Origin: Escherichia phage vB_EcoP-Ro103C3lw
Sequence record: MN067430
Strand: one strand, 5' to 3'
Length of the DNA stretch: 39,389 nt
Shown here: positions 709-39,389 of the stretch, piece by piece
How positions within the stretch are numbered: the first letter of the stretch is position 1
How the letters are laid out: each line of letters begins with the position of its first letter
Notes under the pieces: generated by a model
What the model was told of the DNA's origin: nothing
Database searches by the model: none
What the model saw: only the letters and a program-made list of their open reading frames with translations
Program-made: the position numbers and the translations under genes

Positions 709-1165
709 GGACCACATCGAAGCAACGGTGACGACCGACACTAAATGGTCTACCTGAAGTCCACTGACTGAAAGGAATGCTCTTTAATAATATGACCGTG
801 TATTGATAGGCTTACTAACAACATAGGGTAACTATCATGGATTACAATCAGTTGAATTGGGAATGGTTGGCATACGAGGCCGCCTATGAAGATATGCTGA
901 ATGCGAGTGCATATGTTTGCAGTGATTGCGATGCAATAAGTATTCATGAGGCGATAACAGACCATTTAGCATTTTACAGGAAGTTTGTAGCGTGAGATAG
1001 CTGGCACTAGCCAGCCTATCACTACACGGTCATGCTCTTTAACAATCTGGATAAACTCTTAATGTGCGCCGATAGCGACTAACTACAGGGTCTTTGAGTC
1101 TACATCTGAAGGCCCTGACTGATAGTCACTAACATACACACAAACAACTTTGAGAGGATATAACT

Positions 1166-1655: not shown

Positions 1656-1781
1656 ATGTACCAGATAACGTATAGCAGTGAACAGGCGTTCTACGATGGG
1701 TGCTACGAGATGATGAGGCGCGGGGCTTGCTACGTGGCTAATCACCAGAGCCTGACCATAACGCTGACGGGTGGTTACTGA
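1656..1781 (+). CDS. Hypothetical small early protein, 41 aa
   Basis: ATG 3 nt after the previous stop; open frame to TGA at 1779..1781; tight packing typical of T7 early genes. Confidence 0.35.
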   Translation: MYQITYSSEQAFYDGCYEMMRRGACYVANHQSLTITLTGGY

Positions 1782-1851
1782 GTGATAGACGAGAGGTCAT
1801 CGACTGATAGGTGGCCTCAAAGATTGCCACTTACATTGATAGGAGTTAACT

Positions 1852-5441: not shown

Positions 5442-5520
5442 CAGACCTTAAGTGGCTGGCCTTATGGCTAGCCTTCTTAGCAGTGTACATTTTAATCCAA
5501 CGCAGAAGAGGCTAATCACC

Positions 5521-5976
5521 ATGTTCAACCGTAAACTGAAAGCACGTATCGCATCTCTTGAAGCAACCGTCCAGCGTCAGGACCGCAACCTTGAGCTGGC
5601 TAACCGGGAGCACTCACGACTGAGGGCCAAGATTCAGAAGGCTGAAGAGAAACGTGAAGTCGACCCATTCCGTGTGAAGCGCATGGTCGGCCTGAAGTTC
5701 AAGGCGCTGTTCAATGGTCTATACCAGCCTACTGAGTTCAAGACCGGACCGGGGCCGTGTGGCAAGACAGTTACGCACTTCACCACGAGTCGGACCGAGC
5801 GTGAGCTGACCATCCACCAGCACCACACGGATGGCTCTCAGAAGGACTTCGAGTATCGACTGAGTGACATCGACGGTCGCATCCAGTACGACTACGAGAC
5901 CGTGCTAGTCTACGGAGAAGAGGCAGAACGGGAGCGAGCACACTACGTCTTCCTGAGACGTCAACGGTTCGCTTAA
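5521..5976 (+). CDS. Hypothetical protein, about 151 aa, with predicted coiled-coil N-terminus
   Basis: Open frame 5452..5976; ATG 5521 chosen as the most likely start (MFNRKLKARIASLEATVQRQDRNLELANREHSRLRAKIQKAEEKR); no homolog recognised. Confidence 0.5.
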   Translation: MFNRKLKARIASLEATVQRQDRNLELANREHSRLRAKIQKAEEKREVDPFRVKRMVGLKFKALFNGLYQPTEFKTGPGPCGKTVTHFTTSRTERELTIHQHHTDGSQKDFEYRLSDIDGRIQYDYETVLVYGEEAERERAHYVFLRRQRFA

Positions 5977-5994
5977 ACCCTCACTATAGGATTA
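5972..5994 (+). promoter_or_regulatory. Phage RNAP promoter (gene 1.1 position)
   Basis: gcttaaaccctcactataggatt; +1 G at 5989. Confidence 0.8.
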
Positions 5995-6062
5995 GACTAA
6001 AGGTCGCTGACTTCCAGTGGCCTTCATGATTAACCCTAAACTCAATCACTGGAGATTTAACC

Positions 6063-6242
6063 ATGTATCAGAACACCATCAACTTCGAGCGCATCCGTGA
6101 ACGTCAGCAGACTGAAGGATACATGCCTAAGGGCCGCAAGCTGAACAAGACCAAACGTGGCGGTGGCGTCAAGGGTGCTTTCCGCAACGCTGAAGGTAAA
6201 GACTCTCTGGTCAACCAAGAGAAGTATTTCGTAGGAGCATAA
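6063..6242 (+). CDS. gp1.1: gp1.1-like small basic protein, 59 aa
   Basis: KGRKLNKTKRGGG motif resembles T7 gp1.1 (KGRKLNKTKRD); not in the ORF track because it is under 60 aa. Confidence 0.7.
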   Translation: MYQNTINFERIRERQQTEGYMPKGRKLNKTKRGGGVKGAFRNAEGKDSLVNQEKYFVGA

Positions 6243-7571: not shown

Positions 7572-7581
7572 CTAAACGTCA

Positions 7582-7617
7582 ACCCAGTGGTCTTCGCGGA
7601 CTGCTGGGTTTCTTTGC
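7582..7617 (+). terminator. Intrinsic terminator after the ligase gene (T7 TE position)
   Basis: Hairpin acccag...ctgggt followed by tttctttg. Confidence 0.55.
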
Positions 7618-10595: not shown

Positions 10596-10808
10596 ATGAT
10601 TAAGTTTATCGAATTTCTGGGTCGTCTGGTTGTGCGTGGTTATTCTCGTGCTGCGAGTGTGGAACGAAAAGTCGCATCTGCTGCGGCTAAAGGTGCGGAA
10701 GCGGCTGCTGCGGAAGCGGATAGTCTGCGCATCAAGTCTCTGGACGCTGGCCTCCGTGCTCGCGGTCTGGACAAGAAGGCTGAACAACTAAAGGGTTTCT
10801 TCAGCTAA
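10596..10808 (+). CDS. Hypothetical Ala-rich protein, 70 aa
   Basis: SD aaggag before ATG 10596; no homolog recognised. Confidence 0.5.
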   Translation: MIKFIEFLGRLVVRGYSRAASVERKVASAAAKGAEAAAAEADSLRIKSLDAGLRARGLDKKAEQLKGFFS

Positions 10809-10831
10809 CTTAAACACTCACTAAAGGGATG
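10809..10831 (+). promoter_or_regulatory. Phage RNAP promoter, T3-like variant
   Basis: cttaaacactcactaaagggat; +1 G at 10826; has AAAGGGA as in the T3 consensus instead of ATAGGA. Confidence 0.65.
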
Positions 10832-10880
10832 ACCACTTTCGGTTGTCCCTTTTGTCGCATTACTGATTAAGGAGTGACCA

Positions 10881-12734: not shown

Positions 12735-12899
12735 ATGCTACGAAAACTTAAAGTCCGCTACCACACGTTCATGTACAAGTGGTGGAGCGAGGAGGCCGAC
12801 TGCCTGTCCCAAATCCTTGGAGACCAGCGGTTCAAGTCGAAGGCGTGGAAGCGCGCCAACCAGAAGTTCATGTATCACTTCCTGCGCATTGACTATTAA
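12735..12899 (+). CDS. Hypothetical protein, 54 aa (gene 4.3/4.5 position)
   Basis: SD ggagag before ATG 12735; basic and Trp-rich; not in the ORF track because it is under 60 aa. Confidence 0.4.
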   Translation: MLRKLKVRYHTFMYKWWSEEADCLSQILGDQRFKSKAWKRANQKFMYHFLRIDY

Positions 12900-12917
12900 T
12901 CCCTCACTGTAGGATAG
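12895..12917 (+). promoter_or_regulatory. Phage RNAP promoter, variant
   Basis: ctattaatccctcactgtaggat; +1 G at 12912. Confidence 0.65.
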
Positions 12918-12972
12918 ACTCAAGGCCATTCACATCGAGTGGTCTTTATGATTAGACTATAGGAGATTAACC

Positions 12973-15144
12973 ATGATTGACTTACAGAACATCTGGGGTT
13001 CTGACATCGAGACTAACGGTCTCCTTGACACCGTGTCCCAGTTCCACTGTGGGGTCCTGATTAACGCCGAGTCGAACGAGACCCTGAAGTATGGGGTGGT
13101 GCCGATGGTCGGTATCGTCGGCGGCTTTAAGGAGTATGTGGAGAAGGTCGAGCAGATTGCCGCGACTCCGCATGGACTGCTGGTCTTCCACAACGGTATT
13201 AACTATGACGTTCCAGCGATTGACATCCTGAAGCGTAAATACTTTGGCAAGCGTTTCAACTTCCCGAAACAGAAGATGATAGACACGCTGGTCATGGGAC
13301 GACTGATGTATCCGAACATCAAGTTCTCGGACATGGGCGCTGTGAAAGCTGGCCGTCTGCCACCTAAGATGATGGGACGCCAGTCGCTTGAAGCGTGGGG
13401 CTATCGTCTCGGTGAGATGAAGGGTGAGTACAAGACCGATTACATTGCCAAGTGCAAGGCCGAAGGTATCGACTATAAGGCTGGGGACGAATGGTTGTTC
13501 CCTAGCCAAGAGATGCTGGACTATAACGTCCAAGACGTTGTGGTCACACTGGCCCTGTTCAAGAAGTTCCTGACCGACCAGTTCTACTTTGGGTCTCCTG
13601 AAGCAGGACTTTGGGCTGTGTACGCATTGCGTCTCGAACATGATGCTGCATGGACCTGTGCGAAAATGGAACGCAACGGCTACCCGATGAACTCGGAGAT
13701 AGTCGAAGGCTTGTATCGTGAGCTGTCCATAAAGCGTGCTGAGCTGCTGGATAAACTTCGGTCAACCTTTGGTAGCTGGTATCAGGCCAAGGGCGGTAAG
13801 GAGTTCTTCAAGCATCCTCGGACTGGCGTGGACCTGCCGAAGTATCCACGAGTCGTGTACCCGAAGGTCGGGTCCATCTTCAAGAAGCCGAAGAACAAAG
13901 CTCAACGTCTTGGACTTGAGGAGTGCGAGCGCGACTCCCGCGATACTATGGAAGGCGCACCGTTCACACCTATCGAGTACGTTGAGTTCAATCCGGGGTC
14001 CGGCGACCACTTAGCTAAAGTCTTGATGGACCGTGGGTGGGAACCTACAGAGTTCACTGAGACTGGTAAGCCGAAGTGTGACGACGAGGTGCTGGAGAAC
14101 GTGCATCTGGCAGACCCTGAGGCTCAGGCTTGCGTAGAGCTGGTCCGTGAGTATCTGGTAGTCCAGAAGCGCATCGGTCAGGCGGCTGAAGGTAAGAACG
14201 CATGGTTGAAACTGGTGGGTCCAGACGGAAGGATGCACGGGTCGATTAACCCCTGTGGTGCTGTGACTGGACGTGCGACCCATAGTTCACCGAACATGGC
14301 TCAGGTCCCGGCTAACGGTGCTCCTTGGGGTGAAATCTGCCGTAGCGCCTTTGGTGCTCAGTGGAACAAGAACCACGGGAAGTCCGAGCCGTGGATTCAA
14401 GTTGGGGTGGATGCCTCAGGTCTTGAACTCCGCTGTCTGGGGAACCGAGCGTCTCCGTTTGATGGTGGTGCTTATGCGACCACGGTTGTCGAAGGTGACA
14501 TCCACTGGGCCAATGCGGTCAACGCCGGATTAGCACCTGACGTCAAGCGCGATAAGTCCAACCACGACCATGATGCTTTCCGTAACAACGCCAAGACGTT
14601 TATCTATGCGTTCCTGTATGGTGCAGGGGCCGCTAAGATTGGACTGATAGTCGGCGGTGGGAAGAAGGAAGGTTCAGCCCTGATGAAGAAATTCATTGAG
14701 GGTACACCAGCTATCAAGGACCTTCGAGAGGCTGTGCAGAACACGCTCATCTCCGAGTCCAAGTGGGTAGACGGTGAGAACATCGTGAAGTGGAAACGCC
14801 GATGGCTGAAAGGTCTGGACGGTCGCCGCATTCACATCCGGTCCCCACACTCAGCACTTAACGCCCTGCTTCAGGGTGATGGTGCAGTGGTCTGCAAGCA
14901 CTGGATAGTCGAGACCGAGCGTATGCTTGAAGAAGCTGGCTATGTCCACGGCTGGGAAGGTGACTTTGCGTACATGGCTTGGGTCCACGATGAGCTGCAA
15001 ATTGCGTGTCGTACTCAGGCGATTGCCGAAGAAGTCGTCAAGATTGCTCAACTTGCTATGCGTAAGGTGGGCGAGTTCTATAACTTTAAATGTGTCCTTG
15101 ATACTGAAGGTAAGATTGGACCAACGTGGAAGGAGTGTCACTAA
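12973..15144 (+). CDS. gp5: DNA polymerase, family A (T7 gp5 homolog)
   Basis: 723 aa; SDIETNGLL (exo motif I), VFHNG.NYDVPA, AWGYRLGEMKGEYK, YNVQDVVVT, GAVTGRATH, DASGLELRCL, NAKTFIYAFLYGAGAAKIG, MAWVHDELQ, ends GPTWKECH. Confidence 0.97.
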   Translation: MIDLQNIWGSDIETNGLLDTVSQFHCGVLINAESNETLKYGVVPMVGIVGGFKEYVEKVEQIAATPHGLLVFHNGINYDVPAIDILKRKYFGKRFNFPKQKMIDTLVMGRLMYPNIKFSDMGAVKAGRLPPKMMGRQSLEAWGYRLGEMKGEYKTDYIAKCKAEGIDYKAGDEWLFPSQEMLDYNVQDVVVTLALFKKFLTDQFYFGSPEAGLWAVYALRLEHDAAWTCAKMERNGYPMNSEIVEGLYRELSIKRAELLDKLRSTFGSWYQAKGGKEFFKHPRTGVDLPKYPRVVYPKVGSIFKKPKNKAQRLGLEECERDSRDTMEGAPFTPIEYVEFNPGSGDHLAKVLMDRGWEPTEFTETGKPKCDDEVLENVHLADPEAQACVELVREYLVVQKRIGQAAEGKNAWLKLVGPDGRMHGSINPCGAVTGRATHSSPNMAQVPANGAPWGEICRSAFGAQWNKNHGKSEPWIQVGVDASGLELRCLGNRASPFDGGAYATTVVEGDIHWANAVNAGLAPDVKRDKSNHDHDAFRNNAKTFIYAFLYGAGAAKIGLIVGGGKKEGSALMKKFIEGTPAIKDLREAVQNTLISESKWVDGENIVKWKRRWLKGLDGRRIHIRSPHSALNALLQGDGAVVCKHWIVETERMLEEAGYVHGWEGDFAYMAWVHDELQIACRTQAIAEEVVKIAQLAMRKVGEFYNFKCVLDTEGKIGPTWKECH

Positions 15145-17066: not shown

Positions 17067-17187
17067 CCTACTGGGCGGGCCTGCTGGTCCTGTACTTTAT
17101 GTACAAAATCAGTGGGTCCAATCGTCCTAAACATTAAGCCTAACCGATAGTCTTATCCTATCAATGGTCCATTATCCATAGGGAAAT

Positions 17188-17210
17188 AATAAACCCTCAC
17201 TATAGGGATT
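17188..17210 (+). promoter_or_regulatory. Phage RNAP promoter (gene 6.5 position)
   Basis: aataaaccctcactatagggatt; +1 G at 17205. Confidence 0.8.
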
Positions 17211-17273
17211 TTGGACCAAAGATAAGACTATAAGATAGACTTAAGTCTTAACTTAAAGAGAGGAGACGTAACG

Positions 17274-17546
17274 ATGGCAATTAAAGTCATTGATGAAACA
17301 ATCAATCAACTCGTTGAAGAACGACTCAAGGTCCCTGCCTTCTCCGAGTCAGCCATTCAGTTCCTGCACATCCTGTTCAACGCAAGCTATGCGTCTAAGC
17401 TGGGTGTCATCAACGACCTGAAGGCTGCTGGCTACAGTGAAGGCTACATCGCAGGCTTTATCGGTGGTCTTCAGTATTGTTCAGACACTCTGGACTCTGC
17501 GGTCGCTAAGCGTCAAAGCCTGAAGGACAACGTACAGTTCGACTAA
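17274..17546 (+). CDS. gp6.5-like hypothetical protein
   Basis: 90 aa; SD agaggag; position-based assignment. Confidence 0.6.
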   Translation: MAIKVIDETINQLVEERLKVPAFSESAIQFLHILFNASYASKLGVINDLKAAGYSEGYIAGFIGGLQYCSDTLDSAVAKRQSLKDNVQFD

Positions 17547-25432: not shown

Positions 25433-25456
25433 CTCACTGAAATGCCTATAGTCTCT

Positions 25457-25479
25457 ATTACACCCTCACTATAGGGACT
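25457..25479 (+). promoter_or_regulatory. Phage RNAP promoter (gene 13 position)
   Basis: tattacaccctcactatagggact; +1 G at 25474. Confidence 0.8.
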
Positions 25480-25518
25480 ATAGGCCCTTTAAGTTACAAT
25501 ACTTTAAGAGGAGACTTT

Positions 25519-35371: not shown

Positions 35372-35566
35372 ATGATTGAGTTCGACTTCAAGAATGAGGT
35401 CCTCAAAGCCTCGCCTATCGTCGGGACCGCTGCGGCTGATGGTGCCAGTCGGTTCTTCTTTGGGTTAACACTCAACGAATGGTTCTACGTCGCTGCCATC
35501 GCGTACACCGTGGTGCAGATTGGCGTCCTAATTTACAAGACGATTAAGAGCGGAGGTAAGACATGA
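35372..35566 (+). CDS. gp17.5: Class II holin (T7 gp17.5 homolog)
   Basis: 64 aa from ATG 35372 (SD ggaggt); KASPIVGTAAADGASRFFFGLTLNEWFYVAAIAYTVVQIG is near-identical to the T7 holin. Confidence 0.9.
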   Translation: MIEFDFKNEVLKASPIVGTAAADGASRFFFGLTLNEWFYVAAIAYTVVQIGVLIYKTIKSGGKT

Positions 35567-35826
35567 CGCAGATGGACTTAGAGAAGTTCCTGTTAATGCT
35601 GGACACCGAACGTGCTCGACTAATGCTGCAAGACCTGCGGGATGACTCTAAGCGTTCGCCCCAGCTCTACAACTCCATCGAGAAGCTGCTGGCCCGTCAC
35701 AACTTTGTGTTAAGCAAGGTGTCGGTGGACGAGAAGCAGTTGGCAGACATGGAGGCGCTGAACCGAGAGTACGACAAGGTTCTCTCAGCGACCGAGGATA
35801 ATGACACCGGGTATGGTGTCCAGTAA
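35563..35826 (+). CDS. gp18: Terminase small subunit (T7 gp18 homolog)
   Basis: 87 aa; F.LMLDT..A..ML.DL.D..RSPQLYN.I.KLL.RH.F matches T7 gp18; ATG overlaps the holin stop (ATGA). Confidence 0.88.
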   Translation: MTQMDLEKFLLMLDTERARLMLQDLRDDSKRSPQLYNSIEKLLARHNFVLSKVSVDEKQLADMEALNREYDKVLSATEDNDTGYGVQ

Positions 35827-35882
35827 GTGTTAGACTCAAGGTCATCTATTGGTGGCCTTTATGATTAACACTAGGAGGTGGT

Positions 35883-36254
35883 ATGGTATCGGAAGATGTT
35901 ATAAAGGCTAACGTTCAAGCTGCTCGTAAATTACGAGAGGAACGGGAGGAACGAAGAAAGAGGACTAAGCGCATTTCGCAGATAAAGAGCCTATATGGTC
36001 TCACGCTTGAACAGTTCGAGGACCTGATGGACTCGGTGGGAAGCTCATGCGAGATTTACAAGACTCCGCTTAAAGTAGGTGGGAAGAAAGGAGATACAGA
36101 CTCTGCGTGTATTGACCACTGTCATTCCACTGGGGTGATTAGAGGGGTTTTATGCCGCAAGTGCAATGCAGCAATTGGCGCACTGGGAGATACTACATCT
36201 AGTGTCCAGCGGGCTGTTTCATACCTAGAGAAGACGCTTGTACGTCGATTCTGA
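35883..36254 (+). CDS. Endonuclease VII-family protein (recombination endonuclease VII-like zinc/HNH-type nuclease)
   Basis: 123 aa; SLYGLTLEQFEDLM....SCEIY..........CIDHCHSTGVIRGVLCRKCNAAIGALGD fits the Endonuclease_7 family pattern (YG.T.E.Y......C..C.....DH.H.TG..RG.LC..CN...G); SD aggagg; no gene at this position in T7. Confidence 0.75.
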   Translation: MVSEDVIKANVQAARKLREEREERRKRTKRISQIKSLYGLTLEQFEDLMDSVGSSCEIYKTPLKVGGKKGDTDSACIDHCHSTGVIRGVLCRKCNAAIGALGDTTSSVQRAVSYLEKTLVRRF

Positions 36255-36272
36255 GAAATGAGGAGGGCAACT

Positions 36273-36722
36273 ATGCTCAAACTTTTACGACAGGCCGTTC
36301 CTTGGCTGGTGGCGGGACTCCTGTTCTGCTCAGGTTACTGGGTGGCAGACAATAAGTGGGAGGCGAAAGTAAGCAATGAGTACATCACGAAACTTGAGGC
36401 ACGAGAGAATCAACGGGCTGCTGTCCAAGGTGAAATCGACAAAGTGTCAGCCGAGTGGCAAGACAAGATGTCCGCGCTGGAAGGCTCTACTGATAGGATT
36501 ATTGCTGACCTTAACCGCGATAACAAGCGGCTGCGCATCCGTGTCAAACCCACCAGTGGAACAGTCCAGACTGACGGTCGATGCGTCATTGATGGTTACG
36601 CCGAACTTGACGAACGAGATGCTAAGCGTCTTATCACCATCGGACTGAAAGGTGACGAATGGATTAAGGCCCTCCAGAAGACCGTGAGAGCCATGCAGCA
36701 AGAGAAGGAGGTGAAACCTTGA
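36273..36722 (+). CDS. gp18.5: i-spanin (Rz-like, T7 gp18.5 homolog)
   Basis: [19 protein letters not shown]-terminal TM helix; [42 protein letters not shown]...[10 protein letters not shown] match T7 gp18.5; ATG 36273 with SD gaggagg. Confidence 0.88.
36376..36648 (+). CDS. gp18.7: o-spanin (Rz1-like, T7 gp18.7 homolog), embedded in the +1 frame of the i-spanin gene
   Basis: [23 protein letters not shown]: lipoprotein signal with lipobox Cys; SVDASLMV.PNLT.EML.V matches T7 gp18.7. Confidence 0.85.
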   Translation: MSTSRNLRHERINGLLSKVKSTKCQPSGKTRCPRWKALLIGLLLTLTAITSGCASVSNPPVEQSRLTVDASLMVTPNLTNEMLSVLSPSD

Positions 36723-39198: not shown

Positions 39199-39389
39199 TC
39201 TCACAGTTCAAGAACCTCAAGTCTCCCCCCATAGGGTCACTCTCAGTCAGACCAAAGGCCCTACCCCTAGACCGAAGGTCTAAACCTAAAGTCTTTGACC
39301 AGAAGTCAGGACCAGAAGTCTACCTCAAGGGCCTATATCTAGTGGTTGGGACCAGAGGTCGGGACTATATGTTGTGTCACTGAGTCTCT
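39199..39389. repeat. Right direct terminal repeat (DTR), 191 bp
   Basis: Exact copy of 1..191. Confidence 0.95.

Follow-up and report, generated by a model that had tools for sequence, protein, structure and literature searches.

Three repeated intergenic hairpins in a T7-like phage of Kayfunavirus type are very probably orthologues of the T7/T3 RNase III sites R1.1, R4.7 and R18.5

The same two-part sequence recurs in three gaps between genes of the DNA analysed here (39,389 nt at its full length, hereafter the window), which raises the question of what the repeat is and whether it acts as DNA or as RNA. The window holds the complete genome of a T7-like phage of Kayfunavirus type, with T7 gene order and with all of its long open reading frames (ORFs) on the + strand. 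Its nearest relatives all belong to Kayfunavirus: Cronobacter phage GW1 (~90%) and Shigella ESh23, Escherichia Ro45lw and Citrobacter SH4 (~88%). The phage RNA polymerase promoter consensus CCCTCACTATAGG is present in 11 copies. The motif pairs CAGACCAAAGGCC and TAGACCGAAGGTC were observed at 50-82 and again at 39248-39280, near both ends of the window; this recurrence suggests direct terminal repeats and a complete genome. A strong G+C-rich hairpin, CAACCCAGTGGTCTTCGCGGACTGCTGGGTT followed by TTCTTTG, is located at 7575-7615 after the ligase gene. It is terminator-like and occupies the position of the T7/T3 early terminator TE, the next promoter lying at ~7637.

The first half of the repeated motif, TAGACTMAAGGYC, has exactly three zero-mismatch matches in the window (5993-6005, 12915-12927 and 35831-35843), and so does the second half, GTGGYCTTYATGATTA (6017-6032, 12939-12954 and 35852-35867). 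All six perfect matches are on the + strand and are correctly paired into three segments, 5993-6032, 12915-12954 and 35831-35867, each of which is intergenic. When 2 mismatches were allowed, the first half was found 27 times compared to a mean of 3.4 in dinucleotide shuffles; with 3 mismatches allowed, the second half was found 6 times compared to 0.65. The two-half pattern that a sequence-only reading had described at three loci is therefore real and far above the shuffled background. That reading placed the three loci correctly, but site 1 begins at 5993 rather than 5995 and site 3 at 35831 rather than 35828. It had also described a variable loop of 10-20 nt between the halves, which proved to be a spacer of 8-11 nt that is mostly paired. 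Two weak motif matches at 17321 and 17464, 150 nt apart inside ORF 17274-17546, formed no hairpin and were rejected.

The three segments, referred to below as sites 1 to 3, and the features around them are as follows.

5452-5976, + strand: gene 1.05 homologue, upstream of site 1 (PF25755, T3 gene 1.05)
5972..5994, + strand: phi1.1-type promoter CTTAAACCCTCACTATAGGATTA, +1 at G5989 (promoter consensus match)
5988..6037, + strand: site 1, RNase III-type hairpin at the R1.1 position (motif matches, fold, covariance model, alignment to T3/T7 R1.1)
6063..6242, + strand: gene 1.1, first gene 3' of site 1 (PF08200 Phage_1_1, E = 3e-10)
12735-12899: small ORF upstream of site 2
12895..12917, + strand: phage promoter TTAATCCCTCACTGTAGGATAG, +1 at G12912 (promoter-like match at 12903; sequence reading)
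12907..12961, + strand: site 2, RNase III-type hairpin at the R4.7 position, directly before gene 5 (motif matches, fold, covariance models)
12973..15144, + strand: gene 5, DNA polymerase, first gene 3' of site 2 (phrog_17, E = 2.5e-158)
35826..35872, + strand: site 3, RNase III-type hairpin at the R18.5 position (motif matches, fold, covariance model)
35883..36254, + strand: endonuclease VII ORF, first gene 3' of site 3 (PF02945, E = 3.5e-18)
36258-36722, + strand: gene 18.5, after the endonuclease VII ORF

The three junctions thus run gene 1.05, promoter, site, gene 1.1; small ORF, promoter, site, gene 5; and gene 18, site, endonuclease VII, gene 18.5. Pfam and PHROGs assignments, compared with the T3 annotation, gave the flanking genes expected for R1.1, R4.7 and R18.5, in agreement with the positions originally proposed. 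At site 1, the transcribed part of the phi1.1-type promoter is itself the 5' strand of the lower stem. The site 2 promoter likewise overlaps the 5' strand of the lower stem, and RNAs initiated at G12912 lack the outer 6-bp helix of that site. Site 3 begins where gene 18 (35563-35826) ends, its first base being the final base of the stop codon, and has no adjacent promoter. Between each hairpin and the start codon, which is 10-25 nt past the hairpin, there is a ribosome-binding site. For gene 1.1 this is GGAG, ~10 nt upstream of the start codon; at sites 2 and 3 the ribosome-binding site is abutted by the 3' strand of the lower stem, the sequence before gene 5 being AGGAG. The endonuclease VII ORF is absent from the gene 18/18.5 junction of K1F, CR44b, GW1 and Ro45lw, where gene 18.5 follows the hairpin directly. 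The gene has therefore been inserted here, with the hairpin on one side and the conserved 18.5 leader on the other. The stop codon of this ORF is inside that conserved leader (GATTCTGAGAAATGAGGAGG). Another endonuclease VII-like ORF was observed in an IMG/VR locus (L041), right behind an early-region RNase III-type site (L041:5956-6010).

The three segments adopt a common fold, in which a lower helix of ~8 bp and an upper helix of ~10 bp are separated by an asymmetric internal loop. The 5' strand of this loop is ACU(C/A) and the 3' strand (U/C)AUGA. At the conserved base of the upper helix AAGG(U/C)C pairs with GG(C/U)CUU, and the spacer between the motif halves adds 3-4 bp to this helix around a loop of 4-5 nt. 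The folding energies of sites 1, 2 and 3 were -18.4, -20.4 and -19.3 kcal/mol (z = -3.6, -3.9 and -3.5 compared to shuffles). In site 1, 5988-5995 pairs with 6030-6037 in the lower stem and 6000-6009 with 6015-6024 in the upper stem, and the internal loop places ACUA (5' strand) opposite CAUGA (3' strand). In site 2, the core (12915-12954) is enclosed by an outer 6-bp helix (12907-12912 with 12956-12961), and the upper stem shares its GGCC/GGUC variant with T7 R18.5. These two-helix hairpins confirm the suggestion that the halves pair, with G-U wobbles, into an imperfect hairpin of conserved structure, and in relatives the pairing is kept through compensatory substitutions. The antisense strand folded worse than the sense strand at every site (e.g. 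-8.9 versus -20.4 kcal/mol at site 2), because G-U pairs are lost when they become A-C mismatches on the other strand.

We compared these hairpins with the RNase III sites of T3 and T7. The T3 RefSeq record NC_003298 contains ten stem_loop features annotated as 'RNase III recognition site'; in the T7 GenBank record V01146 no RNase III features are annotated. For T7, we took the site coordinates to be those of Dunn & Studier 1983; as a consistency check, each falls on the same motif position. At these presumed coordinates, T7 R0.5, R1.1, R4.7 and R18.5 carry the same conserved sequence beside the internal loop (5' strand, ACUCAAGGUC; 3' strand, GUGGCCUUUAUGAUU), from which each window site differs by 1-2 substitutions. 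T7 R0.5, for example, reads GAUAGACUCAAGGUC...GUGGCCUUUAUGAUUAUC (also given as GATAGACTCAAGGTC...GTGGCCTTTATGATTATC). The three window segments align column for column with 14 T3/T7 sites, with A-GG...GTG-CT--T as the invariant columns. The consensus structure of this joint alignment consists of 8 bp, a 4-nt/5-nt internal loop and 10 bp, and 11 of its 18 pairs show compensatory change.

A covariance model, R2, was built only from the 14 T3/T7 sites and used to search 198 kb. Its best match in the window was site 3 (35825-35873; 58.4 bits, E = 1e-10), and site 1 (5987-6041; 48.9 bits, E = 1.8e-8) and site 2 (12913-12954; 38.1 bits, E = 7e-6) were also found. Model R1 spans site 2 at full length (12909-12963). 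All R2 matches in the window were on the + strand. In Rfam, no match to any part of the window, sites included, reached the gathering thresholds, and site 3 searched at E values up to 10 gave only a chance-level match to nuoG (14.7 bits against a threshold of 33).

The T7 sites have the same anatomy as those of the window, lie on the same strand and carry the near-identical conserved sequence ACUCAAGG(U/C)C...GUGG(C/U)CUUUAUGAUU. Their lower-stem and loop sequences differ from those of the window, with changes that compensate each other. R1.1 and R18.5 occupy the same gene junctions in both phages. In contrast to T7, site 2 stands directly before gene 5, because the window phage has no gene 4.7. 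The window also differs from T7 in having no R1.3 site, no R1-type site detected before gene 1 and no gene 0.7 kinase. An R1.3 site is not present in the window because genes 1.2 and 1.3 overlap. As a candidate for R1 we considered the region after the promoter at 2472-2494 and rejected it, as it has only the 5' motif half and a weak 5-bp hairpin that neither model scored. This phage-type promoter is directly upstream of the RNA polymerase gene, where T7 and T3 have none. The weak hairpin, GGACTCAAGGTCT...AGACC within 2472-2550, is conserved in K1F, GW1 and CR44b, and may be a degenerate R1 site or something else.

The closest architectural match is T3, all three of whose arrangements are repeated in the window. 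In T3, gene 1.05 is followed by phi1.1 (5984-6006), which overlaps R1.1 (6003-6053), and then by gene 1.1; R4.7 is directly before gene 5, and R18.5 is between genes 18 and 18.5. Two features of the window are not shared with T3, namely the promoter fused to the site at the R4.7 position and the endonuclease VII gene between R18.5 and gene 18.5. The promoter consensus also differs, being CCCTCACTATAGGA in the window and CCCTCACTAAAGGGA in T3.

We then examined the hairpins in relatives. Model R2 matched all three of these junctions in each of the K1F, CR44b, GW1 and Ro45lw genomes, along with two or three early-region positions, and in all four the orthologous site 3 match follows gene 18. Site 1 is 96% identical to its GW1 counterpart, and the Kayfunavirus orthologues differ from the window sites mainly by paired substitutions and loop length. 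The four Kayfunavirus records list promoters and genes and leave hairpins of RNase III type unannotated, and we found no literature linking RNase III with Kayfunavirus.

A pattern scan of IMG/VR returned 120 stretches, mostly from contigs of 38-45 kb, and the model matches comprised 173 sites in 85 loci, nearly all in T7-like contigs. Judged by their flanking genes, the matches precede genes 1.1, 5, 1.3 and 1, separate 18 from 18.5 and occur on both sides of 0.3. Among the best 150 of the 173 sites (104 distinct sequences), 95.9% of the pair cells were standard pairs, compared to 26-49% (maximum 48.7%) when the partners were slid. Double (compensatory) substitutions occurred in 13 of the 18 pairs in these best 150 sites, and 0 of 500 shuffles reached the observed values. 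Because this alignment had been fitted to the model, from a seed pattern that holds the upper-stem base constant, only covariation in the lower stem and at the top of the upper stem is informative. Compensatory changes were observed in both of these parts. They were also found within each orthologous junction group, as in the R1.1 lower stem, which is AACAU/AUGUC in one form and AUUAG/UUAAC in another. Six model matches in related IMG/VR contigs were immediately downstream of gene 5, a position at which no site is annotated in T7/T3 and none was found in the window.

The motif is indeed shared by the three loci, but the family in this genome is larger than was first proposed: two divergent members had been overlooked, as had hairpins resembling R3.8, R6.5 and R13. 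The additional members and hairpins are as follows.

1073..1134, + strand: divergent family member at the R0.3 position, before the ocr (gene 0.3) homologue (model R2, 27.0 bits, E = 3e-3)
1780..1835, + strand: divergent family member in the early region at an R0.5-like position (model R2, 29.9 bits, E = 6e-4)
10820..10855, + strand: R3.8-like hairpin AAAGGGAUGACC...GGUUGUCCCUUU before gene 4 (aligns with the annotated T3 phi3.8/R3.8 and with T7 R3.8; fold -18 kcal/mol)
17147..17231, + strand: long hairpin of R6.5 topology, whose loop holds a whole phi6.5-type promoter (folds and T3/T7 R6.5 alignment; lower confidence)
25444..25485, + strand: 15-bp hairpin of R13 topology, whose loop holds a whole phi13-type promoter (folds and T3/T7 R13 alignment; lower confidence)

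The ocr homologue behind the first of these is ORF 1166-1498 (PF08684), and relatives carry equivalent matches upstream of gene 0.3. The hairpin at 1780-1835 scored 31 bits with model R1 (filters off), folded better in the sense than in the antisense orientation (-18.5 versus -12.1 kcal/mol) and is followed by a ribosome-binding site and an ATG at 1852. When the window was searched exhaustively without filters, sites 1 to 3 and the two divergent members (1073-1134 and 1780-1835) were recovered, and otherwise only noise. We observed a short ORF of ~30 codons at 1852-1943, with a good ribosome-binding site, that starts 19 nt after this hairpin. The program-called ORF 1782-2138, which has a GTG start and overlaps the hairpin, is probably mis-started; its true start is likely near 1944, as comparison with Ro45lw 1874-2068 indicates. 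The R3.8-like hairpin represents a structurally different class of T7/T3 RNase III site and overlaps a promoter-like sequence, as it does in T3 and T7. This promoter-like sequence before gene 4 (10805-10830), ACACTCACTAAAGGGA, is of the T3 type (CACTAAAGGGA) as opposed to the window consensus CCCTCACTATAGGA. The stem sequences of the hairpins at 17147-17231 and 25444-25485 have diverged from T7/T3 R6.5 and R13.

Conserved hairpins of this kind could have functions other than RNase III processing. They might be structural mRNA elements that remain uncut, stabilising 5' leaders or 3' ends or regulating translation by masking the ribosome-binding site, with RNase III only binding or not involved. 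The conserved structure is 10-25 nt from start codons and abuts the ribosome-binding site at sites 2 and 3, and variants of R1.1 exist that bind yet resist cleavage (PMC1540722). However, the sequence to either side of the internal loop is essentially identical to that of T7 sites that are cleaved, and this extends to the upper-stem base near the scissile bond. An uncut element would have no need for the unpaired UAUGAU that is kept across 104 distinct sites. We therefore regard a purely structural function as improbable. It is also conceivable that the repeats terminate or attenuate transcription by the host or phage RNA polymerase, each being a stable intergenic hairpin. None of the three is followed by a U-run (the downstream sequences are AAACUCAAUC, GGAGAUUAAC and AGGAGGUGG), the stems are interrupted by the internal loop and are not G+C-rich (GC 0.37-0.44), and a genuine terminator-like hairpin with a T-run is found elsewhere, at ~7580-7615 after the ligase gene. 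Intrinsic termination is thus very unlikely.

The repeats could instead act at the level of DNA, as promoter extensions, origin or primase sites, recombination hot spots or targets of homing endonucleases, which are numerous in these phages. Such signals would suit the fusion of two of the three sites to promoters, the presence of an endonuclease VII gene beside site 3 and the location of the T3 primary replication origin near phi1.05/phi1.1. In contrast, they would not account for site 3, which has no promoter, nor for the G-U pairing, the better fold of the sense strand and the restriction of model matches to the + strand. The compensatory double substitutions that preserve RNA helices, needless for a DNA site bound by protein, argue strongly against a DNA-level function, and we give this interpretation very little credence.

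Collectively, the T3/T7 alignment, the covariance model, the gene junctions and the compensatory changes agree with the T7-type identity that the sequence-only reading had proposed. They indicate that the three segments are very probably cis-acting RNA hairpins of the rightward, polycistronic phage mRNAs that serve as substrates of host RNase III and are orthologous to T7/T3 R1.1, R4.7 and R18.5. Cleavage has been demonstrated in T7, whereas for the window sites we infer it by homology, and an RNase III in the host is assumed from the enterobacterial hosts of the relatives. One observation stands against RNase III processing: tblastn with the T7, T3 and GW1 proteins as queries detected no homologue of the gene 0.7 protein kinase in the window. 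During T7 infection, RNase III is both phosphorylated and stimulated by this kinase. A kinase gene is present in the close relative GW1.

If the window sites are processed like those of T7, RNase III would bind a quasi-helix of roughly two turns, and the internal loop would limit cutting to a single phosphodiester, that of UAU↓GAU in its 3' strand. This motif is present in all three window sites, and the predicted cuts are after U6027, U12949 and U35862. These cuts were placed by means of the T7 cut positions, which we take to be those of Dunn & Studier 1983 and which consistently coincide with the U of UAU↓GAU or its equivalent. After cleavage, the upstream mRNA (gene 1/1.05, the gene 4 region or genes 17-18) would retain the upper-stem hairpin at its 3' end and would thereby be shielded from 3'-5' exonucleases. 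For gene 1.1, gene 5 and endonuclease VII/18.5, the downstream mRNA would receive a defined 5' end (GAUUA...) 20-35 nt before the start codon and just ahead of the ribosome-binding site. The neighbouring ribosome-binding sites may also become more accessible once the lower stem is open. According to published work, internal loops limit cleavage to a single phosphodiester, and the 3' hairpins that are left are protective (PMC1540722); a single bond is cut in R1.1 RNA (PMC4858673). T7 is able to grow without RNase III (PMC6938266), so any role of the sites in fitness may be modest.

Two classes of transcript cross sites 1 and 2. Read-through RNA contains the complete substrate, whereas RNA started at the fused promoter is missing part of the lower helix. 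RNAs initiated at the site 2 promoter, which do not include the outer lower helix, may be non-substrates. If only read-through RNA were cut, or if the truncated hairpin altered access to the ribosome-binding site, the fusion of promoter and hairpin would link the processing, stability and translation of a transcript to where it originated. We consider such coupling unlikely; if true, it would add a level of regulation to the plain trimming of mRNA, and the endonuclease VII gene behind site 3 might likewise make use of the processed leader.

The three motifs are instances of a well-known textbook element and in this sense are ordinary. Rfam has no model for the family, and the covariance model built from the T3/T7 sites could serve as a seed for one. 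In phage engineering, deleting or moving these intergenic segments would alter mRNA processing and stability. As the sites would mark mRNA boundaries, they should be useful for the annotation of Kayfunavirus genomes.
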